The notes beneath the pieces were generated by a model. It was not told where the DNA came from. It worked only from the letters and a program-made list of their open reading frames with translations, and searched no databases. From NCBI RefSeq assembly GCF_000027125.1, contig NC_017626.1: a stretch of 64,000 nucleotides of DNA, one strand, 5' to 3'. Positions 9,988-36,523 of this stretch are shown in pieces. This DNA comes from Escherichia coli 042 (GTDB lineage: Bacteria > Pseudomonadota > Gammaproteobacteria > Enterobacterales > Enterobacteriaceae). A program made the position numbers and the translations under genes. The stretch's first letter is position 1. Each line of letters starts with the position of its first letter.

Positions 9988-10040
9988 ACTATCTCACCGA
10001 ATAAATTGCAACACTCCCCTTACCCCACATCCTAAAGGCT

Positions 10041-11388: not shown

Positions 11389-11781
11389 CGGCAGATTCAG
11401 TGTTTAGGTATTAAACCATTGTTAATTATAGGGAGAGAGTCAGTGCGATACCGTTACCCAGGAAAGGTATTCCACTGCGCAGATGATTGCCGGTGTCACA
11501 TCCCACCGCCGTTTCAGAACCGGTAACAGCTCATTAAGGTTTCTGATATAACGCTCAGTGAAAACCGGACTGATTACAGGTAATGGTGATATGACAGGTA
11601 TCGTTGCCAATATACACGGCTTCCAGAGGTATGAATCTTACATTCCAGTACCAGGAGTACGGCGAGTGGTTCAGATGAAAAAGACGCATCTGAATATCGT
11701 TAAATAACGGGTTCATGGCGAATTAAATAAACCTGATAATAACAGTATGGGGAAAGTCCGGAATAAAGAAATGGTCCGGTA

Positions 11782-13569
<1,788 letters not shown>

Positions 13570-16108: not shown

Positions 16109-16657
16109 TCACTGAGCTGTAATCAATGTACAGCGCTGTACCGGACGATGGGTAATGGCGGTCACAACCGGTAACCCCAGAGACAATGCGACTGTTTTTA
16201 ACGCAACATACTGACCGGATGTATCACCCCGGGCAACCCGAAAACACCTTTCCACCCGGCATTGTCCGCCAGCACTTATCACCTGCCAGCTATGTTGCAG
16301 TAAATCCACCACTTGCGAACATTGTTCATCAACTGTGACACTGGCTCGCGGGTGACAAATACTCGTCTGGCTGAGCAGCAACAGGCATCGAATTGTTGCT
16401 CCTTCATGTTGTTCCCGCAACCAGCGTAATACCACCGGAGAGGATGGACTGGCAGTGTGATTACGCTCAGTAATACGTTCATGCAGTTGTCGATAAAAGG
16501 AAGTACAGAATGCCTGAATCTGTTGCCCGTTGATGTTTCCTTCAGCCGAATGGAGCGTGAAGTGGACTGCCAGCAGACGCGGCCAGTGGTCCACCGCCTG
16601 CTGAACAAAACGCCGGATGTCTCCCGGCTCTGAAATTAAGGCTTCGGTTATTTGCAC
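16109..16657 (-). CDS. YagK/YfjJ-family (inovirus Gp2-like) protein
   Basis: 182-aa ORF with GTG start lying inside the left island repeat; core (VVLRWLREQHEGATIRCLLLLSQ) parallels the other YfjJ-like ORFs in the window. Confidence 0.45.
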   Translation of the reverse strand: MQITEALISEPGDIRRFVQQAVDHWPRLLAVHFTLHSAEGNINGQQIQAFCTSFYRQLHERITERNHTASPSSPVVLRWLREQHEGATIRCLLLLSQTSICHPRASVTVDEQCSQVVDLLQHSWQVISAGGQCRVERCFRVARGDTSGQYVALKTVALSLGLPVVTAITHRPVQRCTLITAQ

Positions 16658-16730
16658 GAAATGTTCCTTTTCAAACCCTGTTGAATTTTGTTAAGCCAGT
16701 GCAGACACAGTAAAGCGCGCATCAACACCT
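16641..16730. repeat. Left copy of ~90-bp imperfect direct repeat flanking the microcin island
   Basis: Aligns to 29420..29512 at ~80% identity with a 1-nt indel; 29-bp core ttgaattttgttaagcc(a/g)gtgcagacaca differs only at the a/g position. Confidence 0.7.
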
Positions 16731-17087
16731 GAAATGATGGTTTTATTCAGAGTATATGACTTTCTTTTACCCGCTCAAGATACGTTCCCTAGCGATATCA
16801 TCAGAAGTTTATGTGTTGTGTATCCATCCATATTAATCTGGTTCCAGTTTTCGGTATATGTCATGAGGAAACATTACAAATATATTCTGGAGCGGAGAAA
16901 GGAAATTGAAACCGTTTCAGAAAGGTTGATACGTGAGGCTGATACGAGAGAATATGAACTATGGCGTCCTGCCCGTCGTTTTTTCTCCATTCTTTTTATT
17001 GTTCTATTAGTTTATATTCATTCACTGATAACAACTATAAAATAAAAATTATGGCTGTTCTGATACCGGAGAAGAAACGTTCATTCT

Positions 17088-17807
17088 ATGGTTACCTCTT
17101 CCTGTTATATAAAAATTTTAAATAACAAGCAAGGGAATATAAATGGAAATAACAAAAAATGCAACATAAAAACAGTCATCAGCGGCTGCTTTTTAATGTT
17201 TACTTTATCATTTTCTATTACCTTTATTCCTGCATTCCTTACAAACAGGCAGGAACTTATATCCAGGGGACTTCTTGTTCCAGCATTATTTCTTGCTGAA
17301 TTTCTAATTCTTGTTCCACTGTATTTTATTTTCTTCCGAAAAAGAGAAGGATTAGGAAGAGGTTCTTTTCGACCGGATGTTTTTTACTCTTTTCTCTTTA
17401 ATAATGATTATTCAGTTATTTGTCCCTTATCTGCTGGCAGTGAGGAAAACGGAAGAATGGATGATCTCGCAAATGTCTTTTTCTGAGGCCATTTTATGTT
17501 TCTTCTGTACTTCTATGTTCCTGTATATGAAGAGATTGTATTTCGAGGGTGTTTTTTTAATTCTTTATAATTCTGGTTTAATGACAATATTTACATCTCT
17601 GCCATTGTAACATCAGTCATATTCTCTGCATTGCATCTACAATATACTGACTTTCGTACATTTTTTATGCTCTTTTTAGTATCGTTAGTTCTTATTAGCG
17701 CACAAATAAAGTCGAATGGTCTGTTAATGCCCATATTACTTCACATGGCGATGAATGCAGTCATAGCAGGAATACAATATCTAGCTTATATCAGTTATTC
17801 CCATTAA
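17088..17807 (+). pseudogene. Degenerate CPBP (CAAX protease / Abi) family intramembrane protease-like gene, disrupted by frameshifts
   Basis: Frame ending at 17807 encodes a typical CPBP C-terminus (FSALHLQ ... NGLLMPILLHMAMNAV); upstream hydrophobic segments lie in two other overlapping frames (17088..17486, 17377..17610). Confidence 0.45.
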
Positions 17808-18002
17808 CAGAGCATTTTCTGTTACAATCTCATATGATAAAAATTAAACGGACTAGCATTGTTACTATGCGGTATGCATAAAATGATAAACGTTCGGAGG
17901 AGCCTAACTTAAACCATTACATAGGCATCATTAACAATATAAGGTTTAATTTCCACTCCCCGCAGACGAAGAAGCACTTGATGTACATCTGCCGGATCCA
18001 AA

Positions 18003-18224
18003 CTAGGATGATAATCCTATACCTGAGGGAGACATGGAGGGACTAACCGTCGCAGTCGTTGCCCATGAATGTACTTTATCACCTATATAAGCCCCTGCAA
18101 TAGAACCAAATCCCGGGCTAATAAACGTACCTGCAAGTGAACCAATAGCAATTAATTCTGCCTGCCCGTCATTCCCGTCACCTCCAGATATTTGTTTTAT
18201 TTCATTTTCAGATAGTTTTCTCAT
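18003..18224 (-). CDS. mcmA: Microcin M precursor (double-glycine leader, Ser-rich C-terminus)
   Basis: 73-aa product from internal ATG: MRKLSENEIKQISGG leader then DGNDGQAELIAIGSLAGTF...SPSGIGLSS, matching microcin M as recalled. The 133-aa track ORF is an upstream extension. Confidence 0.8.
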   Translation of the reverse strand: MRKLSENEIKQISGGDGNDGQAELIAIGSLAGTFISPGFGSIAGAYIGDKVHSWATTATVSPSMSPSGIGLSS

Positions 18225-18294
18225 TTCAACACCTTCGCTATAAAATTTGTGAAGAAGTAAAAATTCACGTTTAACCACAACGATAAAAATGTAA

Positions 18295-18441
18295 CTACAA
18301 GTGATAAAAAAACATATATAGATTAAAAAAATTATATCTATAGTAATAACTAAGATATAATGACACCGGAATATAAAAGAACAGATAATTGATAACAAAA
18401 GCAATCACTGTTATTTTTATATCCTTCTTAACCTCCCCCAT
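18295..18441 (-). CDS. Candidate small hydrophobic immunity protein (McmI-like), below the ORF-track size cutoff
   Basis: Hand translation: ATG 8 nt after aaggag gives a 48-aa ORF (MGEVKKDIKITVIAFVINYLFFYIPVSLYLSYYYRYNFFNLYMFFYHL) between the mchF stop and the mcmA start. Confidence 0.4.
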   Translation of the reverse strand: MGEVKKDIKITVIAFVINYLFFYIPVSLYLSYYYRYNFFNLYMFFYHL

Positions 18442-18476
18442 CGACAAAACTCCTTACAAAGTTACACCAGTGGATT

Positions 18477-20591
18477 TTAAATAGAAATAATCCTGTCAAC
18501 AGTTCTCAACGTAGTTTCTCTGTGTGCAATAATCACCCGGGTGATATTCATTTTTTTTATGGCAGCATTCACGAAACGTTCACTTTCTGTATCAAGAGAA
18601 CTTGTAGCCTCATCCATAAATAATATTCCAGGTTTCCGGTATAAAGCTCGGGCAATGAATATACGCTGTTTTTGACCGCCGGAAAGACCTTCCCCCAGTT
18701 CACCTATTAACGTTTCATACCCCATTGGCATTTTCATTATCACATCATGAATATGACTTGCTCTGGCACATTCTGTCATCCATTCGTCGTCTGTTTCTTC
18801 TGCAAACCCACAGATATTTTCACGAATTGATCCTGAAAATAGCCGGTCGTCCTGCATAACACAGGCTATCATACGGTGATAATTATTTATTCCAAGTTGA
18901 CGTATATCCGTGCCATTAACCAGTACTTTTCCACTATCTGGTTCAAACAGTCCACATAATACTTTCATTAATGTGGTTTTTCCGGCACCGGAGGCACCAG
19001 TTATAGCCACACTTTCTCCCGGAGCCACAGACAAATTCAGACCACTGAATACCTGTGCTGACTGGCTGTCATACCGGTAGCTTAAATCAGTGGTTTCCAG
19101 TGAAACCGGGCTCATGTCAGCAACGATTTCAATTTCCGGTTTCTTTTCTTCCTTTTCATGTAGTGCAATATCTGCAATGCGCTCATTATGCAGACTCATT
19201 ATTCTCAGTTGAAGAAGAAAACTGGTCAGCGAAGCAACCCGATCCGAAAACTGCCCACGAAAAGAACCAAATGCCACAAACATCCCTATTGTCATCTGAT
19301 TATCGATCACAAGGCTTGCACCCAGCCATAAAATCGCCACCTGATCACAGGCGGCAACAAAAGTATTTATCCCCCCGAAGAGCAAATCCATCTTGGTTAA
19401 CTTAATACCTGAATTGATCGCATCTATTTTCAGGTTAAGCCAGTGTGTTCCCCGGATCCCAGCCATACCTTGGATTTTTACCGTGGCAATACCATACAGG
19501 CTTTCCATAAAATAGGAGCTGGCCCGGGCCCCCCTGACAAGAGTTTCTTCCGATATTTGCCGGTAATAGCCGTATGTCACCAGACGAATAAGAACGTAAA
19601 CCATGGTAAAACCGAGCACTATCCAGGTAAGATATCCTCCATATAACAGCATCATCACAAAAACACCCACAACCATAATACTGTCCATGATTGCCCCAAC
19701 CACACAGGTGGTAAAGGTGGCCCTCAAAGTGTCAAGGGAGCCAAAACGCGACTGGATATCACCTAATTTACGGCGTTCAAAAAACGCCAGCGGCAGTCTG
19801 AGAAGATGGTTAAACAGACCCGACTGCCACTGTATATTGATGAGCGTGCTCATAACCAGTGAGGACCATGCACGCAGCATACTCACCGCGGCCCTGAGCA
19901 ATATAAAGAACATCAGGCCAGCAGAAATAAGCGTCAGCAGCCCTCTGTCCCCCGCCGGAATCGCATGATCCATAACCAGCTGAGTCCCCACCGGCATTAC
20001 CAGATTGATTGCTTCAATTACAACTGACAGACAGAAAATTTTCGCCAGTGTTCTTTTAATACCGTAAATACTGTTAATCAGTGAACGGAGACTTATGCGG
20101 ATCTGCTGGGTTTCCGCCAGGAATTCACTTCCAGGCCAGACCTCAAGTGCAATGCCCGTAAAATACCGGCTCATTTCCTCCCGACCGAGATATCTTCTGC
20201 CTCTGGCCGGATCATGCAGTACATAACGGTTACGCTTTACGCTGACCAGCACGACAAAGTGACTGAAATCCCAGTGGAGAATACACGGCATTTTGAGGGC
20301 ACCAAGTTCATCCAGCTCCAGTGAAAGAGCCCGGGTGACCATCCCCAGCTGCTCCGCTATTCCATTGATTCCTGCAAGGTTTGCTCCACGGGCCGAGAGA
20401 TTAAACTTCCGGCGAAGAGATATCAGGTCAATATTCTTACCAAAATGACCGCATATCATTGCCAGGCAGGCCAGTCCACATTCAGCGGTCTCCGTCTGAT
20501 GAATAACCGGAACACGACGTCGCCAGCGCATATCAAGCTGATTTATAATTTGTCTGAAACTCCCGTTAGTCATTGAGCGGTCCTGTTGCAC
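18477..20591 (-). CDS. mchF: Microcin ABC exporter with N-terminal C39 peptidase domain (CvaB-like)
   Basis: 704-aa ORF; C39 motif around [18 protein letters not shown], six-TM region, C-terminal ABC ATPase ([17 protein letters not shown]). Confidence 0.9.
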
Positions 20592-21840
20592 TGTGTTTCA
20601 TGTCATAGAAAGGAGAAAGCATCCACTGGTAAATACGCCTTTTTTCCAGAAATAGTGTACTTTCGGCTTTCATTCCATTTTCCAGAGGGAGGTATTTTTC
20701 GTCATATCTGATAATCTGCTTTTCAGGCATCGCAATGACTTTATACCAGGGAACAGAGGCGCCCGGCGTATTCTGTGGTGCACCCTTATAGGTCAACATT
20801 TCCTGTGTTGACGCAGGAGTCCTGGATATAGTTTTAACCGTAGCAGAGAACTGCCCAAATTTTTCTGCCGGAAAGGCTTCATAACGAATATTCACTTTGT
20901 CACCAGCCGAAATATAAGGAACAGCATCATTTGGGACCCAGAGAATAAGATAATAGTTTTCAATGTTCTCAGGAATAACCTGCAGAAGGCTGTCTCCGGT
21001 ATTGACCATTTGCCCGACAGTGACACTCAGGGAGTCAACTTTCCCGTCAGTCAACGCCCGGATAATAATTTCGCCCTCCACATCAGTGTTAACCAGTTCT
21101 TTCTGTAACTCGTACCGTTGCAGTTCCATCTGGTAGATACGGTTATCAAAATCTGCAGCCTGAGTCTGAATCTGACTCTCCAGAGTGGTTATCTGCAGGG
21201 CATTCTGTTCGTTCTGTCCGCTCAGGCTGAGAAGATTGTTTTGTTGCTGATAATATAATGCCACCTGGTTAGTTAACTGATCTTTATTAATCAGCCCTTT
21301 TGCCTGATAGTTTCTGTAATTCTCCATATTGTTTTTCATTATTTTTATCCCTTCCTCTGCACGCTGTATAATATCTGATGAGCGACGAAACGCATCTGTG
21401 TATTGCAGACGTTGTTTTTCCAGGGTATCTAACGTTATTTTTTTACTTTCTTCCAGACGGGAAATAATGTTGTCCACACGAACCAGCTGATTTTCTATAT
21501 CCCGCCGATGATTATCAGTGACAATACCACTACGTGTACTTTTACTGATGTCAATCAGATAAACAGGATCCCCTTTTTTTATCAACTGCCCTTCATGAAC
21601 AAATTGCCTGACAACAAATCCCTGTACACCTGAATATATATTGACAGCTCTTGGCCAGGTTGTGACCTCACCACTGACATTAACACGGCGGCTATAGGTA
21701 CCAACAATAATGAACATCAGAAATGCCGTAATAAACACAATGCTTCCCAGCATGATTAACCATAGTGGTATTCCGGGAAGTAATATTGCCCGTCCCTGCC
21801 ACTTCATTTTTCTGTTTTCTAAAGCATCCTGACGAAACAA
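20566..21840 (-). CDS. mchE: HlyD/CvaA-family membrane fusion protein for microcin export
   Basis: 424-aa ORF with N-terminal TM and coiled-coil-rich periplasmic region; overlaps mchF start. Confidence 0.85.
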
Positions 21841-21992
21841 AATAGCTCCTCTTACTCACACTTTTCCTGTAATACCTTCACTGATTAACCGAAACGCTAT
21901 AATCAAAGCCAGAAAATACAGAGTCCTGTCAAAATAGTATCAGCGATGCATTTACCCCGTAATTTACAATTATCTCTGTATCTTCAGAGGTA

Positions 21993-22445
21993 CTACGTTT
22001 TATGCAGCCGCTCAGGGATGTATGTCACAATTTTCTTTCGCCTGCTTAACCATCGTACTTCTCCTTCCCCCCATGGCTGAAGCTGTATGAGATAGTCAAT
22101 AACTTTTCGACCAAAGCCTGGTTTACAACAGAAATCCAGGATCCAGATCCTTCCATCTTCATTCCATTCAGACGGATGCAACCTGAATTCTGGATCCCTG
22201 AGCAGGCGCGCTTCCGTATCAGCCTCAAGATATGCCCAGGTTATATACGCCAGTGGAAAACCTCGTGAATCAAACAGGAATTTAATCTGATTATGCTGTA
22301 TCGCATATTCAGTCCAGTATTGAATGGTTAACACCGGATACAGACTGTAATTACGATTGTAGAGCATACAACTGACCGCAAAACCTATCTGTTCATAAAC
22401 AGTCCATTCATCTTTTCCTCTGATGGTTTCCCTTATATAAGACAT
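21993..22445 (-). CDS. mchD: HlyC-like acyltransferase-family protein (microcin maturation, MchD/MceI-like)
   Basis: 150-aa ORF at the position and size expected for mchD in the mchCDEF operon. Confidence 0.65.
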   Translation of the reverse strand: MSYIRETIRGKDEWTVYEQIGFAVSCMLYNRNYSLYPVLTIQYWTEYAIQHNQIKFLFDSRGFPLAYITWAYLEADTEARLLRDPEFRLHPSEWNEDGRIWILDFCCKPGFGRKVIDYLIQLQPWGEGEVRWLSRRKKIVTYIPERLHKT

Positions 22446-22470
22446 GATTACTATTTCCCTTATATATTTA

Positions 22471-24021
22471 TTACACTGTGTTTCTTATCGGTTCAAGATA
22501 TCCAAATGCATCTCTGGAAAACTTAAGCATAAAATTTTTCATATCAGAAATTGCTTCTTGTAAAAAAAGGGGATCATCGCCATGATTATCCAGCAGGATG
22601 GCAATTTTTTCGCACATATTCTCTTTCCTCAGCTCTTCCCTGGGTTGCAGCCTTTTCATGGTATGATGTTCAATTTCTTTCAGGAGTAATGAAGCATTTA
22701 TCTGACGTCTGGTACTGCCTTGCGTCAGCCAGTGGATAGTCTGGGAAAAACACTGTTGTGCAACGGTGAAATAAACATCATTCTTGATGCTACTATTCAG
22801 TGCCTGCTTTTGATTATGCCTATGATGGATTAGCGTCACAACCAACTTTTGCAATGGTGAACCATCCTGATTGACAATATCTTGGGCATGTGATTTCTCG
22901 CAGTATTTATTGAGTAATGCAACAAAACTGTTAACCAGTTGTTTCAATATATCAGGTATCTCTTTTTGTGTTATAAATTCTCCAGGAATACCCAACAGTT
23001 CTAGATAACAGTAATAACATGCTTCATGAAAAGTTTTCTGAAATATCTCCTCAACCTTCAAACGGGCTGCAAGAGTGAAGTCAGGGTCAAACATATATTT
23101 TCCGATATACAAGCAGAGATCAGACAGCCCTTGCATAAGTACCATCGGTTCTTTTGCCAGTTCAGCTAATCTTAGTTTATACCCAAAATCAGCTGGGGAA
23201 TCTCCCGGAAACAGACAACTGAGTCCGTTAAAATCCATTAATCTGCCATCCATTGCAATATTAGAAGGAGAAGTTGTCAATCTCAGGAAACGTGTTCGAC
23301 AAAATGCCATTTGCCAGGCCTCACGACGTGCCAGTTCACATAATCCCTCAATGCAATAAATCCGGGGATCAGTTCGTGCTTCAGCATCAATTTCTTCCGG
23401 TGGTACAGGTAGATATCCTGGCAGCTTGTGGATCACAGATCTAACCCGACAGGCATCGTGAATTAACTGACTGGAATACTCCGGTTTTACTTGGAAGTAT
23501 GGTGCCCGTTCAAAATGCGCCGGGCGAACAACAGGCTCACGTACCAACAGGGCTCTTCGTGATTTCATACCGGAGCGCTCAAATGCCTTTTCAGTATAGA
23601 GATCTGTAAGTAAAACCGCCCGAACCCGCACAGCACTATAAGGTAATATTTGAGCCAGTACTTCTCCCCACAAAGCCTCATATATTGCATGAACAGCGCC
23701 GAGTGCACCATTAGAATGACGTTCGTCAGTACCTTCACCAACCAACGGATTACTTCCTATTCCTTTAACCTGGTAGTTACCATCAAACCCACAACGTGCA
23801 CCACCTCCATTACGCTGAATACCACTGCCACCATAGCGCTCTGCATGGAACACTTTGGCAGAAGCCGTACTGTCAGGATCGATAATATAACTGCAGGCAT
23901 TTTGCAGCTCGCCTGGATTTCTGACATCCTCTGCACACCAGATTAATGAGGACTTGATCTGCCTGGCAGTGAAAGGCACCAGGTTTTCATTCAGTTCAGA
24001 AAGTGAACACTGATGACTCAT
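22471..24021 (-). CDS. mchC: Microcin maturation protein (MchC/MceJ-like)
   Basis: 516-aa ORF immediately upstream of mchD, matching the mchC size and position. Confidence 0.65.
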   Translation of the reverse strand: MSHQCSLSELNENLVPFTARQIKSSLIWCAEDVRNPGELQNACSYIIDPDSTASAKVFHAERYGGSGIQRNGGGARCGFDGNYQVKGIGSNPLVGEGTDERHSNGALGAVHAIYEALWGEVLAQILPYSAVRVRAVLLTDLYTEKAFERSGMKSRRALLVREPVVRPAHFERAPYFQVKPEYSSQLIHDACRVRSVIHKLPGYLPVPPEEIDAEARTDPRIYCIEGLCELARREAWQMAFCRTRFLRLTTSPSNIAMDGRLMDFNGLSCLFPGDSPADFGYKLRLAELAKEPMVLMQGLSDLCLYIGKYMFDPDFTLAARLKVEEIFQKTFHEACYYCYLELLGIPGEFITQKEIPDILKQLVNSFVALLNKYCEKSHAQDIVNQDGSPLQKLVVTLIHHRHNQKQALNSSIKNDVYFTVAQQCFSQTIHWLTQGSTRRQINASLLLKEIEHHTMKRLQPREELRKENMCEKIAILLDNHGDDPLFLQEAISDMKNFMLKFSRDAFGYLEPIRNTV

Positions 24022-24291
24022 CTGGCAGTATTCTCCGTTTTAATTTTCATAAAAGAGTGTTCATAAAAGAGCAAGTAAGTGTCCTGACAGCTTCTTCCTT
24101 ATTACAGTAAAACTCTATTAATTACACATAAATTAATAATTATTTATCAACGACTGTAAATCATATCTTCATCAGTAAAGTGTTGAACATAAAAACACAC
24201 TTATAAATGGATCTTCTATCTGCTTTAAACGAAAGGGATATATTTTACAGGCACTATCGAAAAAGTGCCTGTAAAATAAATAAAATTATAA

Positions 24292-24519
24292 TTAGCTACC
24301 GCCACCAGCAGAAGAACTGGCACTACCACTTCCCACGGTCGAGCCAATTGCTGTTGTCAAACCGGCAGATACGGCTCCAACTACAACCCCAAGTGGACCA
24401 CCAGGTATTCCGGCGAGAGCTCCAACAATAGCTGCAGCACCTGCGGCATTAGCTGAAGTCGCTGGCGCACCTCCCGCCCCGGAAATATATCTTAACTGTG
24501 ATTCTGTTATTTCTCGCAT
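24292..24519 (-). CDS. mchB: Microcin H47 precursor
   Basis: 75-aa product from internal ATG: MREITESQLRYISGAGG leader then Gly/Ala-rich core ending SGSASSSAGGGS, matching MccH47 as recalled. Confidence 0.85.
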   Translation of the reverse strand: MREITESQLRYISGAGGAPATSANAAGAAAIVGALAGIPGGPLGVVVGAVSAGLTTAIGSTVGSGSASSSAGGGS

Positions 24520-24535
24520 ATAAACTCCATCATAT

Positions 24536-24745
24536 TTAACTTCCGTTTTTCCAGCCTGACCAGACCAGAATCTTTCGAATCCCATGAATCAGCTCAATAA
24601 AACCAAGAAATATTATAAAGCTTAGAAAAACGTCAACATAAGAATTCCCTTCGCCAACAATCCGAAGGGATGAAAGTGAAACCAATAAGATAGTAAGAGG
24701 TAAACTAAATATAGCCGTCAATTGGTACAGTTTTTTATAACTCAT
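24536..24745 (-). CDS. mchI: Microcin H47 immunity protein (small two-TM membrane protein)
   Basis: 69-aa hydrophobic ORF 16 bp upstream of mchB; size matches MchI. Confidence 0.75.
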   Translation of the reverse strand: MSYKKLYQLTAIFSLPLTILLVSLSSLRIVGEGNSYVDVFLSFIIFLGFIELIHGIRKILVWSGWKNGS

Positions 24746-25156
24746 TAATACCTACCTGTTGCTTTATTTTCATTATGAAAAGTTACCAAATCTTAGCGCT
24801 TCAGTCAGGGGAGTCAGGTCATCGATAAAGAATATTCCAGTAGAGTGGCGCTCATGATCAAAGACAACAGCAAAGTTGATGACAGTGCTGACCGACTGTC
24901 ATTTACAGTAACCCTGTTTGTAGCAAATTCCATCTTACCAGACCTCACCCAGACAAAGACAAAAGAGAATGATTGTTATTTACTTTTCAAAAAAAGTGTC
25001 ATATTGTCCATATAAAGTCAAGAGGTATTTTACGTTATGTAACTGATGCAATTGTTAGTCAGGATCTCATGGTTGTCGCTCATGTATAACCTGAGACTTG
25101 AACGTACACTAATAGCACTGACGGTCATACATCGGGAAATGTGAGGAGGCATAAGA

Positions 25157-25402
25157 ATGAATTGTGATAATAATCACAGAAATGAAGAATTCATTGTTAC
25201 CTTTGATAAAGGCAACAAGCAAGACAATTCAAGACGAAAACACGATAATTTTCCTATAGAGGTAGAATCCTCCGTAGAGCTGGAGACACACTGTATCACA
25301 AATAATAAGTCGGCTTCCGGTATAGTAACACATGACTATGATGCCGATTATATTTGTGGTTGTGGTGAAATTATGTGTCCTGGTTGCGGTCATGACCTAT
25401 AA
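25157..25402 (+). CDS. Small Cys-rich hypothetical protein (C-terminal CGCGEIMCPGCGH motif); possibly the mchS4 equivalent
   Basis: 81-aa ORF with strong RBS (gaggagg 7 nt upstream of ATG); C-terminal CxC-x4-CPxC motif suggests metal binding. Confidence 0.35.
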   Translation: MNCDNNHRNEEFIVTFDKGNKQDNSRRKHDNFPIEVESSVELETHCITNNKSASGIVTHDYDADYICGCGEIMCPGCGHDL

Positions 25403-25556
25403 CAAACATATTTGCAAACTGATACCTGATCAGGTACAAGCCTGTTGATTATTATGCTGAATATTCCAGTTATCAATCCATCGATATGAACATTAACAAG
25501 AAAAAACATATATTGTTTATCTGAATATTTATCGATGGAAAACCAAAGGGGAAAGT

Positions 25557-25991
25557 ATGTATCTTACGAAAAAGATTATAATAAGTATGATGTTTATATT
25601 ACCATCTGCTGCATTTTCATCAGATCCACCTCCCCTTCAACAATCGTTAGAAAAAACAACCTATTTTTCTATAGGTATGAATGGGTTTATAGGCTATCAG
25701 AGCGAAGGGGAAAAATTATACACACACATTCTTACATTAGATAATCCCGAAGAGATATTTAAAAATATAATAAAAAATAGAAAGTCAACTAAGGAGTCTA
25801 AAATTTATGCTGCTTGTGGGCTATATTATTTAAACGTAGAAAATATAGAGTCATTGTTTAATGAAAATGATAAACAAGAATATGTGTCTGTCTTAAGAGG
25901 GGATATTTTAACAAAAATAAAACTGAATGATATTCTGAATTCTGTGATAATAAATGGTTGCAACACCAAATTAATATCTGAACATAAATGA
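25557..25991 (+). CDS. Signal-peptide protein immediately upstream of microcin I47; possibly its immunity/accessory protein (MchS3-like)
   Basis: 144-aa AT-rich ORF with N-terminal hydrophobic signal; ends 17 bp before the microcin I47 precursor gene. Confidence 0.35.
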   Translation: MYLTKKIIISMMFILPSAAFSSDPPPLQQSLEKTTYFSIGMNGFIGYQSEGEKLYTHILTLDNPEEIFKNIIKNRKSTKESKIYAACGLYYLNVENIESLFNENDKQEYVSVLRGDILTKIKLNDILNSVIINGCNTKLISEHK

Positions 25992-26007
25992 GCAGGAGGT
26001 TTTTAAA

Positions 26008-26241
26008 ATGAGAGAAATATCAGATAACATGCTTGATTCCGTGAAAGGAGGGATGAATCTTAATGGATTACCTGCTTCTACTAATGTAATAGATCTACGT
26101 GGAAAAGATATGGGAACATATATTGATGCTAATGGAGCATGCTGGGCTCCGGATACTCCATCCATCATCATGTATCCGGGGGGAAGTGGACCTTCTTATA
26201 GTATGAGTAGTTCCACATCCAGTGCAAACAGCGGCAGTTAA
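26008..26241 (+). CDS. mchS2: Microcin I47 precursor (double-glycine leader, Ser-rich C-terminus)
   Basis: 77-aa ORF: leader MREISDNMLDSVKGG, C-terminus SMSSSTSSANSGS typical of siderophore-microcins. Confidence 0.7.
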   Translation: MREISDNMLDSVKGGMNLNGLPASTNVIDLRGKDMGTYIDANGACWAPDTPSIIMYPGGSGPSYSMSSSTSSANSGS

Positions 26242-26529
26242 ATAAATACCATCCGGCTATGCCGGAGGGTATTTATGATGTGCCTGTAAGACTCTACTTC
26301 TGTCGTCTCTTTACAAAGGCATATGATCTGACATTTTGTACCAGACATCTTAACGAGAGCCTTTTCATATATTACTTACATACGTGAAATCTACAGTATA
26401 AAGCAAAAATTTTATTAAACCTGTTTTATATTTATCATCAATACAACAGATTTAATTCCGGAAAGTCACTCATCACCCCTTGAATGAACGTCATTTGATG
26501 TATTATTCTTACACTTGGATTAATTTAAG

Positions 26530-27804
26530 ATGATACCTATGAAAAACTATCTTTTCCAGACTCCCGAAGATATTTGTGTACAGTTAAAAAAAATGACACA
26601 TCCTGTCACAATAAGAACAACAGATATTGCTAATTTCTGGCACTATCTTGAGTCAGCAACTCTTCCGGTGATCACAAAAAGCACCACTACAGAAAATCGG
26701 GAGGTTACATTTCTGTGGCGCTCAGAGAAAGCAGTGCAAGGCGTATATCTTCGCCTGAATCGTGTTACAGATAAAAAAGATGTCAAAAAAGGACTAATGA
26801 CTCATATCCCTTCGACAGATATCTGGATGCTGACACTGGTGTTACCAGCTTCATATCGGGGCTCATACTCATTTATAGAAATTCCCACAGATATGACACA
26901 AAAAGACATATTTCAACTAGGAAGTCGCTTCTCTCCATTACCCGGTAAATCTGATCCATTTAACAAAACAGCAGAAATAAATATACGAGGATTCGGAGAA
27001 TCAGTCCTTTCTCTTGATATGGCTCCTGAACAAAAGGAATGGGATGATACTTCCCATAAATGTACAGGTATTCTTTCAACATTACATTCCTTTGTTGCAG
27101 GATATCAACGCCGGATTCGTTTATATTTTCCCCAGAATCCAACATCAGTACCTCTTGGATTACTTGTGTTACCTGATGCTGAAATATGGTTTGACCGGAT
27201 GGATATTACCCGGGCATTAGATATGGCCATTACCACTGGTCATATTGCGCCAATGGCAATTATGGGGATAGACAATATTAATGAATCTGATCGTATGAAT
27301 ATACTGGGAGGCAATAAAGAACTTATCTTTGATATAGCGGAAAATCTGATACCCCAGTTATACAGAGACTACCCGAATATCGTATGGGCTGGTCGTTCTA
27401 ATACTATACTGGCCGGTCAGAGCCTCGGTGGAGTGACAGCACTGATGGCAGCTATATATGCGTCGACAACATTTGGTACAATCATTAGCCACTCACCTTC
27501 AATGTGGTGGAACCCTGACCAGGGCAGCCCGATTTTGTTTACTGAGAATGATATCTCCTGGGTAAGTGAGCAGATACTTTCAGCGCCTCCGAAAGATGTA
27601 AATATCCAACTTGGAGTCGGTTCTTTAGAAGGTACAACCGTCTCACATGTTCAGCGGTTGCATCAGTCGTTAATCGCAGCAGGTTTGGAAAGTAACCTCA
27701 CTGTCTATGCCGGTGGTCATGATTATGCCTGGTGGCGCGGAGCAATTATTGATGCATTAGCAAATTATAATTGCAGGAAGATATCAGATAATAACTTTGT
27801 GTAA
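26530..27804 (+). CDS. mchS1: Enterochelin esterase-like hydrolase (IroD/MceD-like) for siderophore-microcin maturation
   Basis: 424-aa ORF with esterase nucleophile motif (LAGQSLGG) in an alpha/beta-hydrolase-like C-terminal half. Confidence 0.7.
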   Translation: MIPMKNYLFQTPEDICVQLKKMTHPVTIRTTDIANFWHYLESATLPVITKSTTTENREVTFLWRSEKAVQGVYLRLNRVTDKKDVKKGLMTHIPSTDIWMLTLVLPASYRGSYSFIEIPTDMTQKDIFQLGSRFSPLPGKSDPFNKTAEINIRGFGESVLSLDMAPEQKEWDDTSHKCTGILSTLHSFVAGYQRRIRLYFPQNPTSVPLGLLVLPDAEIWFDRMDITRALDMAITTGHIAPMAIMGIDNINESDRMNILGGNKELIFDIAENLIPQLYRDYPNIVWAGRSNTILAGQSLGGVTALMAAIYASTTFGTIISHSPSMWWNPDQGSPILFTENDISWVSEQILSAPPKDVNIQLGVGSLEGTTVSHVQRLHQSLIAAGLESNLTVYAGGHDYAWWRGAIIDALANYNCRKISDNNFV

Positions 27805-27952
27805 GCGATTATCTCATCGTACCGATAACGCTTTCTGCAACATTATAACGGGAGACATACTCATTTATTTAGTTATGTCCTTCATCATATAAGTGAAGGA
27901 CATTCTATTACTCATGACATTTTTCGTCGATAATATCAGCAATACTATACAA

Positions 27953-29071
27953 TTATTTCCCGTTGTTTTTTAATTTTCTCATCAAAACCTCTGCGATCTC
28001 TGCAGGACTGGGTTGTTCAGCCATTTCAGCGGCTACCTGATCTGAACAGAAGCGTAGTGAATCATCATAAAGCAGGCGATTTACCAAATCACTGGTCAGT
28101 CCATGCTTGTCCGGAATAATCCCACACCCACGCATCGCAACAATTTCTGCATTAACAGAGCGATCTGCACCTTCGCCAAACACAATCTGTGGTATCCCAC
28201 TATACAACGCTGTCAGGGTATTACCTGCGCCACCATGATGAATAAATCCATCAGCTCCATTAAGGAATACACCCATAGGTATCCAGTCAACCAGACGTAC
28301 ATTTGATGGTAGTTTTCGTAATCCAGTACGAGCATTTATTGCAAGTTGCAAAATGATATCAGCATCAACTTCATTTGCAGAATCCATAACCCATGAAATC
28401 AGCTCCAGACCATCAACCATTGGTTTTACAGTGCCAAGGCTGATGAGTAAACGTTTTCGATCAGAATCCCTGTCCCACCATGTTTCCTTTACAGCACCTC
28501 CGTTATAAGGAATATATCTCATTGAGATAACCGGTTCTTCAGCATTTTTAAGAATGCTCATACTTGGGGGAGCAACATCAATCCATGCTAAATCACATAG
28601 TGGACCGCTGACTCCATGCCGCCTGTAAGCATTGCTTAAAGAACGGTTTAACATCTGAATATGGGCAGATGTATGCGCGAATCCAACAGCCAGCATCACT
28701 GAAGGAATTCTATATTTAGCAGCAACCAATGGGCCTGCCGGACCAAGCGGGGGATAGACTATTAAATCTGGCCTCCATTTTCCTGCAAAATCGATGAGGT
28801 TATCTGCCATTTCATCGCTAAAAAAAGAGAAATGACCAATAATATTACTTTTTTTCCTCAACTCTTCCTGATGGCGATATCCAGCCTCTGAATCTAAACT
28901 TGGAACTGCATCAAAAACAACCAGTCCAGCTTCTGCTGCTTTATTCGCGAATTTGCCAGCACTACTAATTACTACATCATGTCCGATTACACGAAAGGCC
29001 TGAGCCAGAGAAATCAATGGGTATAACAAACCGTACAGCGGTGGGCCAATAAAAAGAATACGTTTTCGCAT
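27953..29071 (-). CDS. mchA: Family 1 glycosyltransferase (IroB/MceC-like) for siderophore-microcin modification
   Basis: 372-aa ORF with MGT-type N-terminus (RILFIGPPLYGLLYP) and C-terminal donor-binding region (HHGGAGNT). Confidence 0.75.
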   Translation of the reverse strand: MRKRILFIGPPLYGLLYPLISLAQAFRVIGHDVVISSAGKFANKAAEAGLVVFDAVPSLDSEAGYRHQEELRKKSNIIGHFSFFSDEMADNLIDFAGKWRPDLIVYPPLGPAGPLVAAKYRIPSVMLAVGFAHTSAHIQMLNRSLSNAYRRHGVSGPLCDLAWIDVAPPSMSILKNAEEPVISMRYIPYNGGAVKETWWDRDSDRKRLLISLGTVKPMVDGLELISWVMDSANEVDADIILQLAINARTGLRKLPSNVRLVDWIPMGVFLNGADGFIHHGGAGNTLTALYSGIPQIVFGEGADRSVNAEIVAMRGCGIIPDKHGLTSDLVNRLLYDDSLRFCSDQVAAEMAEQPSPAEIAEVLMRKLKNNGK

Positions 29072-29419
29072 TAAAAAAGTCCGTCTTCTGCTTACCTGTT
29101 TATTTTTCTATCGCTAAGAAAACATAATTAATATTATTTTTATGTGAGCTTATGCACAAAAATAACCAAGTATCTTATCTTCTGGTAGAGATACAGGATA
29201 CAGTTTGTAGGAGCTTTCTTTTTTGAACAATGAGTTACAGGACAGTTATGCCAACCTACCGGAATCAGTATCACACCAATAAATGACAGATCATACCTGA
29301 AATTTGAATTAACAGGCATCATGAATGTCAATAGTCTAAGCGGTTACTACTTACATCGCTTGCATAAATACTAAACACTGACTAGAAAAGTATTGGATAA
29401 CCCCGTCACTAAAAGTAAC

Positions 29420-29512
29420 GCTTCGGTTATTTGCACAGAATACGACTCCTTCAGACTCTGTTGAATTTTGTTAAGCCGGTGCAGACACACGGGAAGGTGC
29501 GCATCAACACCG
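29420..29512. repeat. Right copy of ~90-bp imperfect direct repeat flanking the microcin island
   Basis: Aligns to 16641..16730; on the minus strand it retains the first six codons (VQITEA) of the YfjJ-like gene found after the left copy, then diverges. Confidence 0.7.
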
Positions 29513-29705
29513 GTGTAATGCCAGTTATAAACAATGTGAATGGAATGACGAATCAGTCAGGAAAGAGCTACAACCTGCTGGCTGACCGGAGAGGGTCAGC
29601 AGGAAAATGAACGGTAATGTCGCCAGCACCAGGGACAGGGCTGATTTCCGCAATACCAGCGCCGGCATTTTGCACATTGCCAGCGTACCGGCATCACAAC
29701 ACGTT

Positions 29706-29942
29706 TCATGCTGCTGCTCCTCGTGATTCCTCAATTCGCTGCTGCATCCACTGCTCCACTTCACTTTTGTACCAGCGGCTGCTGCGGCCCAGCTTGATGG
29801 GTTTCGGGAAATGGCCTTCACTGATCAGCTTGTAAAACCATTTATCTGTCATACCGGTGAAACTGGTGATGTAGTTCATGTCGATCAGGGGATCGTCGGC
29901 ACGCAGCAACACGCAGTCGTGGCCTGTCATTGAGGTCAACAT
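29706..29942 (-). CDS. alpA: AlpA-family prophage regulatory / excisionase-like protein
   Basis: 78-aa ORF; C-terminal region (GHFPKPIKLGRSSRWYKSEVEQW) matches the AlpA family pattern. Confidence 0.7.
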   Translation of the reverse strand: MLTSMTGHDCVLLRADDPLIDMNYITSFTGMTDKWFYKLISEGHFPKPIKLGRSSRWYKSEVEQWMQQRIEESRGAAA

Positions 29943-30010
29943 GGTCAGAATATCCTCTGTGAGATTTATGAAGGTTGTGCGAATGCGGGGAAAGGTGCTG
30001 AGCCGTATTC

Positions 30011-30586
30011 TCAGAACGGTCCTGCAGATCCGGGATAGCCGGGATTACCGGCGAGGCAACGGGCTTCCGGATCGCACACACCACGACGATCGCGGGCGAA
30101 ATCACTGAACGCCCAGATCAAATCTTTGAGGATGTCTTCGCAGTCCGGTGAACGACTGTCCAGCACCACATCCCGGGTTATCTGTTTCTGGTACGGTGCC
30201 GCTTCCCCCGGTGACGCGAAGCCCAGTACGTTGCTCCAGGCATCCAGAATCAGCCGGTCCAGTTCGGGGCCGTCGAAATACTCCTGTCTGACGCACAGCA
30301 CCACGTGGTATTCCGGCTTTTCCGGATGACGGGTCAGGAGCCAGCAAAGGTCGCGTCCGGGTTTCGCATTCATCAGCGCACTGACGGTTTCGATAAAATC
30401 CATACCAAACCAGGTCTGTCTGCTGTTGAAGGCGTTGTCATGTTCCCACGGCAGACGAAGCAGGATCCGCCGTATCCGTGAGCCGGACTGCTCACGCAGC
30501 GCACGCTCAAGGACGCCGATGACTTTGTTCTGATAAGATGGCCAGAAGGGTGCCAGGCTATAGTCGAAATAAGGAATAGCATTCAT
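30011..30586 (-). CDS. YagK/YfjJ-family (inovirus Gp2-like) protein
   Basis: Track ORF starts at GTG 30718; likely true start is internal ATG (MNAIPYFDY...). Paralogous to 30833..31399 and 37556..38287. Confidence 0.5.
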   Translation of the reverse strand: MNAIPYFDYSLAPFWPSYQNKVIGVLERALREQSGSRIRRILLRLPWEHDNAFNSRQTWFGMDFIETVSALMNAKPGRDLCWLLTRHPEKPEYHVVLCVRQEYFDGPELDRLILDAWSNVLGFASPGEAAPYQKQITRDVVLDSRSPDCEDILKDLIWAFSDFARDRRGVCDPEARCLAGNPGYPGSAGPF

Positions 30587-30832
30587 AAGATATGTTCCGT
30601 TATGCGCAGCCCACAATGCGTCCTGCCCGTGAATGAGCTGACGTGTTATGGCTTGCGGATGAGATTGATGGAATAAGTGAAGAACTGAAGCAGAACGGGA
30701 AGATAAGGGACAGAACACCGGATTCAGGTTCAGGATGAATGATCTCCGTTGACTTCAGTTCACATCATTAATCAATGCGGTAAGTTTTTACCGACGGAGT
30801 GTTTCCAGGAGCGGAGGCTCAGGCCTTAAGCT

Positions 30833-31399
30833 TCAGAAGTGAGGCTTACGAGGACGCCCTGCAGCAGGACGTTCAGGAACTTCATTGCAGCCGTAGGCAC
30901 ACAGCCCGTCTTTTTGTTCTTCTTTCGCCAGATAATGCAGGGCACCGCGAATATTATCGATGCTTTCAGGATCGTTGTGGCGCACAGGAATGTTGATGTT
31001 GTATGCATAATGCGGCTGATATGTACAGCGGTGCGCCGAACCACAGTTATACGTAATTGCCTGCCAGCATTCCGCTATCCGCTCCGCAAAGGGATATATT
31101 TTTTTAACCCTCTGACGATCGATCCAGAAAACGACATGCGCATGAAAACCATGATCAGCCGTCCATTCAATCACCCAGAAGAAACCAACGATATTTTCAA
31201 ATTGTTCCACCTGCTCCAGCAGCATACGCAACTGCAATTCAAGCCAGCGATGATCAGGTTGTAAGAAATCAGGCGTATCTTTCCTGTAGAAGAAATCCAT
31301 GCGTAAGGCCCGCAGGCAGGAATAGCGTGCCATCATTTGATTGATGTGATTGTCAAGTAAAGCGGTAAAAAACCAGTTTGGTGTGTAAGATTTAGGCAT
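30833..31399 (-). CDS. YagK/YfjJ-family (inovirus Gp2-like) protein
   Basis: 188-aa ORF (HAHVVFWIDRQR core) in tandem with the previous paralog. Confidence 0.55.
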   Translation of the reverse strand: MPKSYTPNWFFTALLDNHINQMMARYSCLRALRMDFFYRKDTPDFLQPDHRWLELQLRMLLEQVEQFENIVGFFWVIEWTADHGFHAHVVFWIDRQRVKKIYPFAERIAECWQAITYNCGSAHRCTYQPHYAYNINIPVRHNDPESIDNIRGALHYLAKEEQKDGLCAYGCNEVPERPAAGRPRKPHF

Positions 31400-32826
31400 G
31401 TTGATGACTCCTGAAAGTTAATGATGTTTTAAGCTCTGTGAACGAATTAATGCTTTCGCTCATAATCAGATCTAAAACGGTAATAACTTACAGATGGTAT
31501 TTATCAGGCATGCTGTAGCAGAATGGATACGACGGGTTATTAACGATACGCAGCATTATGCAGAAAGAAATGGATTATCTGATGGTATTAGCTAAAGAGA
31601 TGAGATAAACGAGGAGTAAAGAAAATACAGACTCAATAAAACATCACGAAATACTGCAAAATACGCGATAAAACACCACGACCAGAAGGTTAAGAAACAT
31701 ATTGCGACCAATCATAAACTACAAACTTGCTCTCAGTGGTTGTAAAAACCGTGTACAAGGCCAATGCAATAAACTTATATGCGCTCATTCAATCTGTTCT
31801 TAAGGACATGAACATTCACGGCTCACGATAGCAGAATAAAAAATACCACTGACATGATTTTCATCCTGCATCTTAGATAATACAACCCAGAACAAACATA
31901 ATCAGGAATCTCTCCTGTCAATTCCATTGTTTATCCAGCTCTGTTAATCGTTACAGAATCATGGATACCTTATCAAAAAGTAAACATTCGGTTAATCAGT
32001 AATGACAAAAGAATTGATGTTCATCAGAATAGTTAAAACACTTCAGATAAACAATTATCGTTAAGTAAATACAGTTCATGATGGATAAGATTAAAATCAA
32101 TTACTGTTTCAGTGAAGACTGATAACAGATGAATATCATCAGTAGAATGGTAGAGGATAACTTATCTGAGTATCGTATGAATTACAGTAGTTATGCCTAA
32201 TGAAGAAGGAAGTGGATATTATGATAATGGTGACAATGAAGATTAGACAAAGAAGAGTGTGAGTAAAGACAGAGTGAATATAATTATAGTAATAAACCTA
32301 AATTAAAATTATCCATGTTTGATGTAAAATAATAATATACTGACAACCATGAAGATAAGAAAAAGAGAGTGCAGGTATCAGGAAGATCTCAGGATATGAA
32401 GATTCCCACAACACAGATTTAAAATCAGTCGAATATAATAAATTTAAAAACCTTAATTAAAATGTAATCTCATCCATGGTTAACATGCTCCTGAAAAGAA
32501 AATTTACAAATACCGTATGCTACCAACTAATTACAACAATGATATATGTACATTCAATAAGAATACAGATAAAATATTAATACCAACTTCCAGTATCAAG
32601 ATCGTATCGCGAACTTCAGATGCGCTATGAGGCAGTTCAATTTTTAACTTTCGTTTTCCTCTTCCTCCCTGGCTTCATATGCATAAGCGACTTGAAAGAC
32701 CCGATGATAGTTACAATTTCAGGTTGTGGCATGACGATCAATTTGTAACTGAAACAATGAACGGTAACGCTGCCATATAAACATCAAAATGCGAGCATTA
32801 CAGCGACATTGAACCGATTAGATGTA

Positions 32827-33573
32827 TCACTCATAATCAGAACAAGATGATGTATCCTGAGATATAAGAAAATCATCAAGAGAACCTCCGGCTTTTATTG
32901 CTTCTGCAATAACATTAGGCCGACGACCTTGTCCACTCCAGTACATTGTTTGACCGTTATACTCATACCTGTATTTATTAGACTCTCCTGAATCGTTTTT
33001 CCTGCCCGTCTGTAATTTTTTGCCAAATTCACGTTCGTCGATCATGGTAATGATATAGCGACGCATTTCACCCATTCTGAGCTCAATGGCGTCCATCCCA
33101 ATGAGCTCACCGGTCTTTACCGGACGGTAGTGCTTTGGCCGGCGGGGTTTGGCGGTTCGCTTTTTGACAAGCAGAGCCTTACCCCGCGAGCTCAGACGTA
33201 CTGGTATCATCCGCATTTTATCGTGTGCGGTGGCGATCATTCTGCCGATGGTGGAAACACTCGGGCAGGTCAGATGGCGCTGTGCGCACCAGGGCTTCAG
33301 GCGAACAAAAATCTGCTCTTTACCGAGGTTTGGCAGCTCTGTCCTGAGGCGTCGAATCTCTTTCAGCACATCGGGATGCCAGTGCTTTTTTCGTCGCACC
33401 AGAGGTGCCTTACTGTGCGGGATTAGCCCCTCAGGTCCTCCCTTGTTCAGTAACTGACGCCACCAGTAAAGCGTGCGGCAGGACACGCCAAAGGCTTCAG
33501 AAGCCGCAGAAATACCGTGTTTATCCCAGAAGTGCAGAGCCTTCATTCTCATTGTTGCTATATCAGCTGTCAC
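32827..33573 (-). pseudogene. Truncated IS481-family transposase-like gene (HTH plus start of DDE domain, then unrelated tail)
   Basis: N-terminus (LHFWDKHGISAASEAFGVSCRTLYWW) and GELIGMDAIELRMGEMRRYIITMID resemble IS481-family transposase up to the start of the catalytic core. Confidence 0.4.
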
Positions 33574-34102
33574 GAACGGTGCAATAGTGATCAGCCATCA
33601 CTGAAAGCCTCAACGCATAATCGGCCGTTTAGGATAGCCAACCATCAGATGCTGCATTTGCATAGTGCAATCTCCCCTTACTTATCCGGAGGCAATTGCA
33701 ATATCTCTGTGAACTTACACATAGGTGTAATCAATAAGGGCGTACGGAGATTGCCCGTTATTGCTGCAGGATCGGCAGACTGGTTTCCGTCCTTGCGCAT
33801 ATAACTGTACAACTACAGAGAAAAGCATCAATGCACGCTTTATGTTGCGTCAGGGCAGCGAACGACTCCTTTTGTTGACGACACATATCACCTTCTGTAC
33901 TGCTAATTATGGCATTCAGCGTCTCCCCGAGTTTTAAGCTCCTGCTCTTACGAACCAGCGACAAGCAATAAATAACTATGGCAATGAATCTAATAACAGC
34001 ATAAATATGAGACTCATCGATACTCATCGTGATTAGTATAATCGGGGCATAATTGGGGCAGAATTATATTCACTGTCTGATTTATTATTGGGTTAAATAT
34101 AA

Positions 34103-36446: not shown

Positions 36447-36523
36447 ACAGCGTATTTTGCACAGGAGTCGCTGAAAAATTCGCGTTAATCGAACAATGGC
36501 GACAACAATTTCCCATTGAAGCG

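Follow-up and report, generated by a model that had tools for sequence, protein, structure and literature searches.

A 64-kb Escherichia coli window carries a copy of the recombinase-less H47 genomic island with a predicted inactive microcin M module

The microcin H47 system of Escherichia coli was described by Azpiroz, Bascuas & Lavina in 2011 as a 12,635-bp 'H47 genomic island', which has no recombinase gene and lies between imperfect direct repeats of 148 and 144 bp that are 76% identical (PMC3191183). Azpiroz & Lavina (2017) delimited perfect blocks of 13, 11, 20, and 17 bp within these repeats (PMC5426353). The island has been published for E. coli H47 (AJ009631) and for enteroaggregative E. 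coli (EAEC) 042 (PMC3191183, PMC5426353), and its microcin M genes were described there just as 'truncated'. Here we analyze a 64,000-nucleotide stretch of E. coli 042 (contig NC_017626.1; hereafter 'the window') in which a block of microcin genes is bracketed by direct repeats, and compare it with this island and its relatives. Among the latter, the archetypal cluster for the microcins M, H47, and I47 (MccM, MccH47, and MccI47) is that of CA46 (Patzer 2003; Poey 2006; reviewed in PMC7472721). The islet of strains Nissle 1917, CFT073, and ABU83972 (genomic island I, serX) resembles the block in containing mchI/B/C/D/E/F and mcmA and in being an islet inside an island. According to the papers, however, it is without mchA/mcmL, mchS1/mcmK, the I47 genes, and the attL-side repeat, whereas in the window both ends are present and the cluster includes a glycosyltransferase and an esterase of its own. 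The microcin E492 cluster of Klebsiella pneumoniae RYC492 (mceA-J), likewise compared by description, shares the IroB-like and IroD-like enzymes, a MceI/J pair equivalent to MchD/C, and a C39-ABC exporter with its membrane fusion protein, but has another precursor and immunity pair and another host species. With respect to mobility, the closest parallel is the prophage-like element phiSE14 of Salmonella Enteritidis, which also has no recombinase of its own, excises independently of RecA, and shows several crossover regions in long repeats. Its repeats are longer and more alike (308 bp, 98%) and cured clones have been isolated, in contrast to the H47 island with no known in vivo product (PMC3191183, PMC5426353).

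The repeats of the window, located with a repeat finder and by best local alignment (Table 1), are identical in 98 of 121 alignment columns (81%) with five small indels. About 290 random segments of the window scored 18 on average and never above 32, against 118 for the repeats, which shows that the resemblance is not due to chance. Both copies contain four blocks of perfect identity, which in the order of the window (IV, III, II, I) measure 17, 20, 11, and 13 bp; these are the published blocks I-IV in reversed order, because the window runs opposite to AJ009631. The repeat starts are 12,780 bp apart, which is the sum of the published island length (12,635 bp) and one repeat (about 145 bp). 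The best local alignment (114 and 119 bp, 81%) is narrower than the published limits (about 145 bp, about 76%). The four published primers match without mismatch and in the published geometry (out2 at 16519-16541, plus strand; in2 at 17162-17184, minus strand; in1 at 29203-29225, plus strand; out1 at 29593-29614, minus strand), and the out1/out2 product predicted after repeat-to-repeat recombination has the published size of 316 bp. Gene content and order also agree, down to the truncated microcin M-related genes and the missing recombinase. These matches identify the block as a copy of the H47 genomic island already published, which belongs to the class IIb (siderophore) microcin clusters, and as judged from primers, blocks, size, and genes no substantive difference from the island of AJ009631 and EAEC 042 was found. 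It represents a system already described in detail and not a new kind of system. A preliminary description of this DNA had likened the block to the microcin H47 island with its imperfect direct repeats, and this reading is borne out; the repeats it placed at 16641-16730 and 29420-29512 are real and correspond to the core from the first to the last perfect block. Taken as a whole, the locus is best explained, with high confidence, as an H47 island copy that was inserted by a crossover in block III, whose movement would be guided by homology, and whose microcin M module is inactivated.

The mode of insertion becomes visible in genomes that carry the same site without the island. Among 5,426 complete E. 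coli genomes, searched with the left flank through block III joined to the right-repeat sequence after block III, the flanks are contiguous in 1,517; a full island, defined as at least 80% of 13.4 kb, is present in 155. Repeat-to-repeat junctions, on whose existence in relatives the preliminary description had staked its reading, are therefore abundant. All three empty sites checked (ETEC4085, Sanji, and W2-5) have the backbone order ProQ/FinO gene, 182-aa open reading frame (ORF182), att region, AlpA-like gene, 190-aa ORF, and YagK/YfjJ gene, and their att region is an exact chimera of the two repeats, which changes from left-repeat to right-repeat sequence at block III. It follows that the repeat parts that face the island interior are island-borne: the left repeat is of backbone type to the left of block III and island-borne to its right, and the right repeat is island-borne to the left of block III and of backbone type to its right. 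The two island-borne parts combine into a diverged copy of one backbone stretch. The predicted 261-nt block-III chimera, which is the published 'attC-III', was found exactly in W2-5 and in Sanji, the latter among the strains listed in the 2017 paper (PMC5426353); the chimeras for blocks I, II, and IV were not found at these loci. A with/without pair gives the same picture, as carrier O26 97-3250 and the empty ETEC4085 have 6 kb of left flank in common at 98.6% identity, together with 3 kb of right flank, and a single 109-bp segment of the empty site corresponds to both repeats of the carrier. In such pairs the repeats coincide exactly with the presence/absence boundary. The comparison shows the two repeats to be the products of one crossover between a backbone site, 'attC', which consists of the intergenic DNA between the AlpA-family gene and ORF182 plus the first codons of ORF182, and 'attI', an island-borne copy with about 75-80% similarity. 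By the same comparison, the crossover in this lineage is shown to lie within the 20-bp perfect block III.

The gene content of the repeats reflects this arrangement. ORF182, which is encoded on the minus strand, begins inside the left repeat: its GTG start and first codons are part of the repeat, as are about 80 bp upstream of this ORF. In the right repeat the same first codons recur (GTG CAA ATA ACC GAA GC.; VQITEA), followed by a short dead frame, and the duplication of the first six codons of the neighboring gene, seen earlier, is thus confirmed. That gene had been said to follow the left repeat; it lies to the left of the repeat and overlaps it. Its former label, 'YfjJ-like', could not be reproduced: ORF182 has no match in Pfam, NCBIfam, or PHROG, and BLASTP against the two YagK/YfjJ/Gp2 proteins of the window gave E values of at least 0.86 and no similarity. 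Some RefSeq records nevertheless name homologues in the same position (83-97% DNA identity) 'YagK/YfjJ domain-containing protein'. ORF182 is intact in both empty and occupied sites. The AlpA-family gene is situated 186 bp outside the right repeat, and in empty sites it lies directly upstream of ORF182.

Comparison with five other carriers, in 50-nt identity bins, indicates that the repeats have also acted as end points of exchange. All five match the window at 99.6-99.9% identity over the interior (20001-29401). The flanks are less alike, at 90.6-98.1% over the 522 bp that precede the left repeat and at 87.3-93.5% over the first kilobase past the right repeat. The break falls inside the right repeat in three of the five comparisons (A12, EC31, and STEC313) and inside the left repeat also in three (CFIAFB20180511, EC31, and STEC313). 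Two forms of the island can be distinguished. The long form (EC31 and STEC313) has the same gene order and both junctions and contains 526 bp directly after the left repeat that are deleted in the window, where the deletion cuts the left repeat at about 16734; we infer that the EC31 form is the CA46 archetype. The short forms all have the identical 526-bp deletion junction, which presumably indicates a single origin, and yet they are joined to two right-flank variants (window, O26 97-3250, and CFIAFB20180511 versus A12) with the switch just after block II. These patterns, a line of evidence independent of the polymerase chain reaction (PCR), support the view that natural recombination has, at least in some cases, really had its end point inside the repeats. 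They likewise support, without proving it, natural turnover at the repeats. In EC31 the repeats (8224-8397 and 21594-21771 of its locus L008) extend to about 178 bp at 74% identity, and their homology stops there; tblastn detected no significant remnants of alpA or ORF182 in the long form or in the right interior of the island. The island-borne repeat copy of the long form is closer to the right flank of the EC31/A12 type, which has a GATACGATACAAACAC insert, than to the flank of the window type. This hints that the island may first have been associated with an EC31/A12-type backbone variant.

Remnants of the island with one junction also occur. The mcmA-side junction, detected in 871 genomes, is commoner than the mchA-side junction, detected in 652. 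A remnant of the type found in the SpLE1 island of O157:H7 Sakai (NC_002695.2 1414364-1437320, locus 7100-11960) accounts for most of these 652-871 genomes with a junction and no island. In Sakai, the remnant of the microcin island measures 3.7 kb and comprises ECs1374, which encodes the 152-aa membrane protein, IS1F, and the MchA-like ECs1370 ('glucosyl-transferase', 97.5% to mchA). Its two junctions can still be recognized, and the right repeat diverges after window position 29441. In uropathogenic E. coli (UPEC) A1.S1.65 (NZ_CP146591.1, locus 6200-7820), all that remains is the final 245 bp or so of the interior together with the right repeat and the AlpA-like gene, and this remnant directly adjoins a pap (P fimbriae) operon. 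It exemplifies how, within a pathogenicity island, the site can mark the boundary of a deletion or rearrangement.

The H47 island is itself an islet, nested between the AlpA-family gene and ORF182 of a large CP4/P4-like composite island whose backbone is conserved. The composite island spans 49.7 kb and is 99.9% identical at two sites, beside kps in the window and at pheU in NZ_AP022298.1, where it occupies the tRNA-Phe between dicD and cadC and has an intact P4-type integrase. A placement of the window itself at pheU, after this best-matching genome, was rejected: collinearity ends at 49,699, and the window then enters the kps capsule locus (about 50-64 kb; kpsF, E, D, U, C, S), which has its best match (98%) in T-HYM1. 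In that strain, kpsT/M-type transporter genes and gsp genes come after the kps locus, an arrangement which, from the standard E. coli map, we take to mark the pheV side of the chromosome. O26 97-3250 carries the island at the selC site, next to setC/yicL. In total, carriers were seen in four contexts (kps side, pheU, selC side, and SpLE1). The backbone module occurs in up to eight places per genome; this multi-copy, mosaic character explains why the flanks are so variable.

By which process does an island without a recombinase enter and leave its site? The hallmarks of a classical integrase island are absent. There is no integrase or recombinase between the repeats (16737-29401) in the annotation or the ORF list, in agreement with the preliminary description, and the window has no tRNA gene. 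Inspection of the repeats revealed no resemblance to a tRNA 3' end and no inverted-repeat core, with no inverted pair in the left repeat and one weak pair in the right. Rfam models gave no match at gathering thresholds in the whole window including the repeats, and promoter and terminator scans at both junctions gave nothing beyond chance level. The insertion site is intergenic DNA plus an ORF start within the backbone of another island. We favor, at about even confidence, gain and loss through host-supplied, homology-guided recombination in the short perfect blocks, together with passive travel in composite islands. An island of this kind would enter and leave by a RecA-independent short-homology process, as favored by the 2017 paper (PMC5426353), and it may also travel passively as the surrounding composite island moves between tRNA sites. 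RecA-independent excision and integration were reported in 2011, with crossovers in four different perfect blocks (PMC3191183). The PCR signal for excision was unchanged in mutants of each of 16 site-specific recombinases of K-12, in double and multiple mutants, and in recA, recET, and about 20 other recombination mutants (PMC5426353), and it was still obtained when the flanks were no longer than 71 and 95 bp and thus did not include the AlpA-like gene (PMC3191183, PMC5426353).

Several observations weigh against this explanation. Excision and integration have been seen only by PCR, with no deleted replicon or plasmid and no circle in vivo, and the authors themselves concede that PCR chimeras between the repeats are possible (PMC5426353). 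A synthetic 281-nt attI junction had no match at 80% coverage in any complete E. coli genome, which means that neither a tandem or circular junction nor a donor backbone variant was found; the diverged island-borne copy of the backbone stretch occurs in one piece in no complete genome. None of 72,556 plasmids (PLSDB) has at least 80% of the island, and no transfer vehicle was identified. In O26 97-3250 and CFIAFB20180511 a break lies 120-400 bp outside the repeats, as expected from ordinary homologous recombination in the flanks. Finally, the carriers compared (six plus Sakai) are few and not phylogenetically independent, and EC31, STEC313, and A12 have one common right-flank type.

A bolder possibility, to be regarded as tentative, is that the AlpA-ORF182 site is a natural hot spot, at which a recombinase-less cassette has been repeatedly inserted, lost, and swapped (pheV/kps, pheU, selC, and serW (SpLE1)) by an undescribed mechanism. 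Either short homologies would be exchanged independently of RecA, or the exchange would depend on an integrase/AlpA pair that is specific to certain strains and missing in K-12. If the hot spot exists, the 155 carriers, the approximately 650-870 remnants, and the 1,517 empty sites would allow PCR-free mapping of crossover blocks, which could settle the question of a PCR artifact that has been standing since 2017.

Alternatively, the island might be immobile on its own. The repeats would then be the scar of one ancient insertion or rearrangement, the island would spread vertically, as a passenger, and by homologous recombination in its flanks, and the reported excision would consist of chimeras formed by template switching during PCR. 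This agrees with the lack of any in vivo product, with a PCR signal that was identical in every recombination mutant tested while chimeras are admitted to be possible, and with the occurrence of the same composite island at two sites. It would also fit the stretch of flank that O26 97-3250 and CFIAFB20180511 have in common with the window past the repeats, and a highly recombinogenic backbone module. However, in most comparisons the drop in identity occurs inside the approximately 115-bp repeats instead of being spread along the flanks, the short form of single origin is joined to two right-flank variants with the switch inside the repeat, and the empty sites are exact chimeras at a perfect block. 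Even if flanks were merely swapped, these events had their end point inside the repeat and thus were real recombination there. We consider this explanation unlikely, albeit with an appreciable chance of being right.

A recombinase acting in trans could also be responsible, with the repeats as attachment sites for, e.g., the P4-type tyrosine integrase of the composite island and an AlpA-family protein; this is the 'parasitic island' model of 2011 (PMC3191183). The RecA-independent excision and integration reported in the same paper, the AlpA/excisionase-family gene next to the right repeat, and the P4-type integrases of host islands such as the intact one at pheU are in line with such a model, and the authors note that a strain-specific recombinase is possible (PMC5426353). 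Nevertheless, it appears improbable, because the PCR signal persists in the 16 K-12 recombinase mutants and their combinations and without the AlpA-like gene, because four different crossover blocks are atypical for a single core site, and because the repeats have neither an inverted-repeat core nor any likeness to a tRNA 3' end. In 2017 the authors discarded site-specific recombination (PMC5426353). That the two approximately 115-bp stretches resemble each other by chance and are unrelated to the island boundaries, for which their modest identity with indels might be cited, is already refuted by the alignment score and by the with/without pairs, in which the repeats coincide exactly with the presence/absence boundary as well as with the published att sites.

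The names of most genes between the repeats (Table 1) were taken from the RefSeq annotation of NZ_AP022298.1, to which positions 1-49,699 of the window are 99.9% identical. NCBIfam models gave almost no matches to the small microcin and immunity peptides, and their names rest on the RefSeq annotation and on lengths and sequences that match a review (PMC7472721), including the 75 aa of MchB and the 77 aa of MchS2. The C39-ABC exporter, the HlyD partner, the maturation genes, the glycosyltransferase, and the esterase listed in the preliminary description are confirmed by domain matches and RefSeq names. The cluster thus contains the IroB-like and IroD-like enzymes, the MchC/MchD (MceJ/MceI-type) pair, and the C39-ABC exporter with its HlyD-type partner that characterize class IIb systems. 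Homology of the glycosyltransferase and the esterase to IroB and IroD is stated in the review (PMC7472721), and MchS1 matches the enterochelin esterase model at 2.3e-58 (198 bits), under the equivalog cutoff of 222. From established knowledge on this family (PMC7472721), applied here from the genes, MchA would glucosylate enterobactin and MchS1 would linearize it. MchC and MchD would attach the siderophore moiety to the C-terminal Ser-rich tail of the precursor. The peptide would then be exported by MchE, MchF, and TolC, with removal of the double-glycine leader by the C39 domain, and MchI and MchS3 would confer self-immunity. The G+C content between the repeats is 40%, compared to 45-48% in the neighboring 10 kb.

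Three precursors with Ser-rich tails had been counted in this DNA. MchB and MchS2 indeed combine a double-glycine leader with such a tail, as typical of class IIb precursors, but McmA does not. In mcmA, CAG is changed to TAG at codon 74 (18003-18005), and translation ends after 73 aa (...SPSGIGLSS*), whereas alignment with other carriers gives 92 aa for the full-length protein, the length also stated in the review (PMC7472721). The 19-residue Ser-rich tail is left untranslated, in frame to about 17946. Three further microcin M-associated genes at the left end are broken, namely the ORF in the immunity position directly upstream of mcmA, which encodes a membrane-type protein of 75 aa when whole, the gene of the CPBP family, and the ORF for a 152/156-aa protein, the 5' end of which was removed by the 526-bp deletion. 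In the long form (EC31 and STEC313) all four genes are intact and McmA is canonical, ending in GSGS; the 152/156-aa ORF is intact in EC31, STEC313, and Sakai (ECs1374). As predicted from the reading frames, only MccH47 and MccI47 can be made by this copy, and its microcin M module is inactivated. Short-form relatives with a full 92-aa McmA end in ...GRCTSSASSSAGSGN and not in the canonical ...GRGTSSASSSAGSGS, a replacement of the terminal Ser by Asn. In this microcin family the terminal Ser is the residue to which the siderophore is attached. On plasmids, only a related module was found, carried by large plasmids of Salmonella enterica (e.g. NZ_CP045058.1, 136350-142443), which is 83% identical to window positions 17959-24039 and consists of an mcmA-like 'colicin V family bacteriocin' gene, mchF, mchE, mchD, and mchC, with no other part of the island and no repeats.

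Table 1. Repeats and genes of the H47 island copy and its immediate flanks (window coordinates).
Feature	Position	Strand	Remarks
182-aa backbone ORF (ORF182)	16109..16657	-	GTG start and first codons in left repeat block IV; no family match
Left direct repeat	16623..16736		Published attR; blocks IV 16641-16657, III 16678-16697, II 16699-16709, I 16717-16729
3' remnant of 152/156-aa membrane-protein ORF	16734..17045	+	5' end lost to 526-bp deletion
CPBP-family intramembrane protease gene adjoining mcmA	17196..17807	+	Frameshifted, internal stop; intact (228 aa) in EC31
mcmA (microcin M precursor) pseudogene	18003..18224	-	Double-glycine leader (MRKLSENEIKQISGG); TAG at codon 74
ORF in microcin M immunity position	18295..18447	-	Frameshift by 1-nt deletion; 50 aa vs 75 aa in EC31
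mchF, C39-peptidase ABC exporter	18477..20573	-	Peptidase_C39 (1.5e-39), ABC_membrane, and ABC_tran domains
mchE, HlyD-family membrane fusion partner	20566..21840	-	HlyD-family match (1.3e-29)
mchD, HlyC-family acyltransferase-like maturation protein	21993..22445	-	Pfam HlyC (3.3e-11)
mchC, maturation protein	22471..24021	-	RefSeq name 'MchC protein' only; no Pfam family
mchB, microcin H47 precursor	24292..24519	-	75 aa, intact; ends ...SASSSAGGGS
mchI, microcin H47 immunity protein	24536..24745	-	69 aa; RefSeq name
Small ORFs between mchI and mchS3	24814-24948, 25157-25402	-, +	Where the published map shows regulatory genes; putative mchX/mchS4
mchS3, microcin I47 immunity	25557..25991	+	NCBIfam MchS3-family match above curated cutoff
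mchS2, microcin I47 precursor	26008..26241	+	77 aa, intact; leader ends ...VKGG, tail ...SSSTSSANSGS
mchS1, IroD/Fes-like enterobactin esterase	26530..27804	+	Enterochelin esterase model match
mchA, IroB-like glycosyltransferase	27953..29071	-	Glycosyltransferase family matches
Right direct repeat	29402..29520		Published attL; blocks IV 29420-29436, III 29458-29477, II 29479-29489, I 29499-29511
AlpA-family (excisionase-like helix-turn-helix) gene	29706..29942	-	Pfam Phage_AlpA (2.6e-10); weak 'excise' domain match

The remainder of the window is in keeping with a mosaic region. Its left end (11-5835) has three co-oriented genes for a TerB-N-domain protein, an ATP-binding protein, and a DEAD/DEAH helicase, named after a near-identical record, which look like a candidate anti-phage defense system. 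They are followed on the minus strand (6936-9139) by genes for a PerC-family regulator, an IbrB-like protein, and a PAPS-reductase-like (IbrA-type) protein, and at 10041-11388 by fragments of a type VI secretion system (VasL domain, ImpA N-terminal domain, and a POTRA pseudogene). An intact tssB/C/K/L cluster occupies the equivalent position left of the island in CFIAFB20180511 and STEC313. To the right, positions 29706-49700 form a CP4-like 'right arm' that contains the AlpA-like gene, two YagK/YfjJ/Gp2 genes, a H-NS-like gene, IS30 (35233-36384), a fragment of IS600, and genes for a YfjP GTPase, DUF905 and DUF932 proteins, an antirestriction protein, a RadC/JAB protein, and CbeA/CbtA (47145-47800). 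Within the kps locus, the stretch from 59 to 64 kb has a very low GC content (0.28-0.30) and presumably is the serotype-specific region 2.

How an island moves without a recombinase of its own is a small but real question, and the survey adds support for recombination at the repeats that does not depend on PCR. Empty and remnant sites are much wider spread than earlier surveys showed, and several chromosomal contexts are now documented. Work on gut colonization treats siderophore microcins such as MccH47, MccM, and MccI47 as weapons with a narrow spectrum; examples of their role are the activity of Nissle 1917 against Salmonella and niche dominance of UPEC. The intact modules of a given island copy predict what a strain makes, which in this case would be H47 and I47, but not M.

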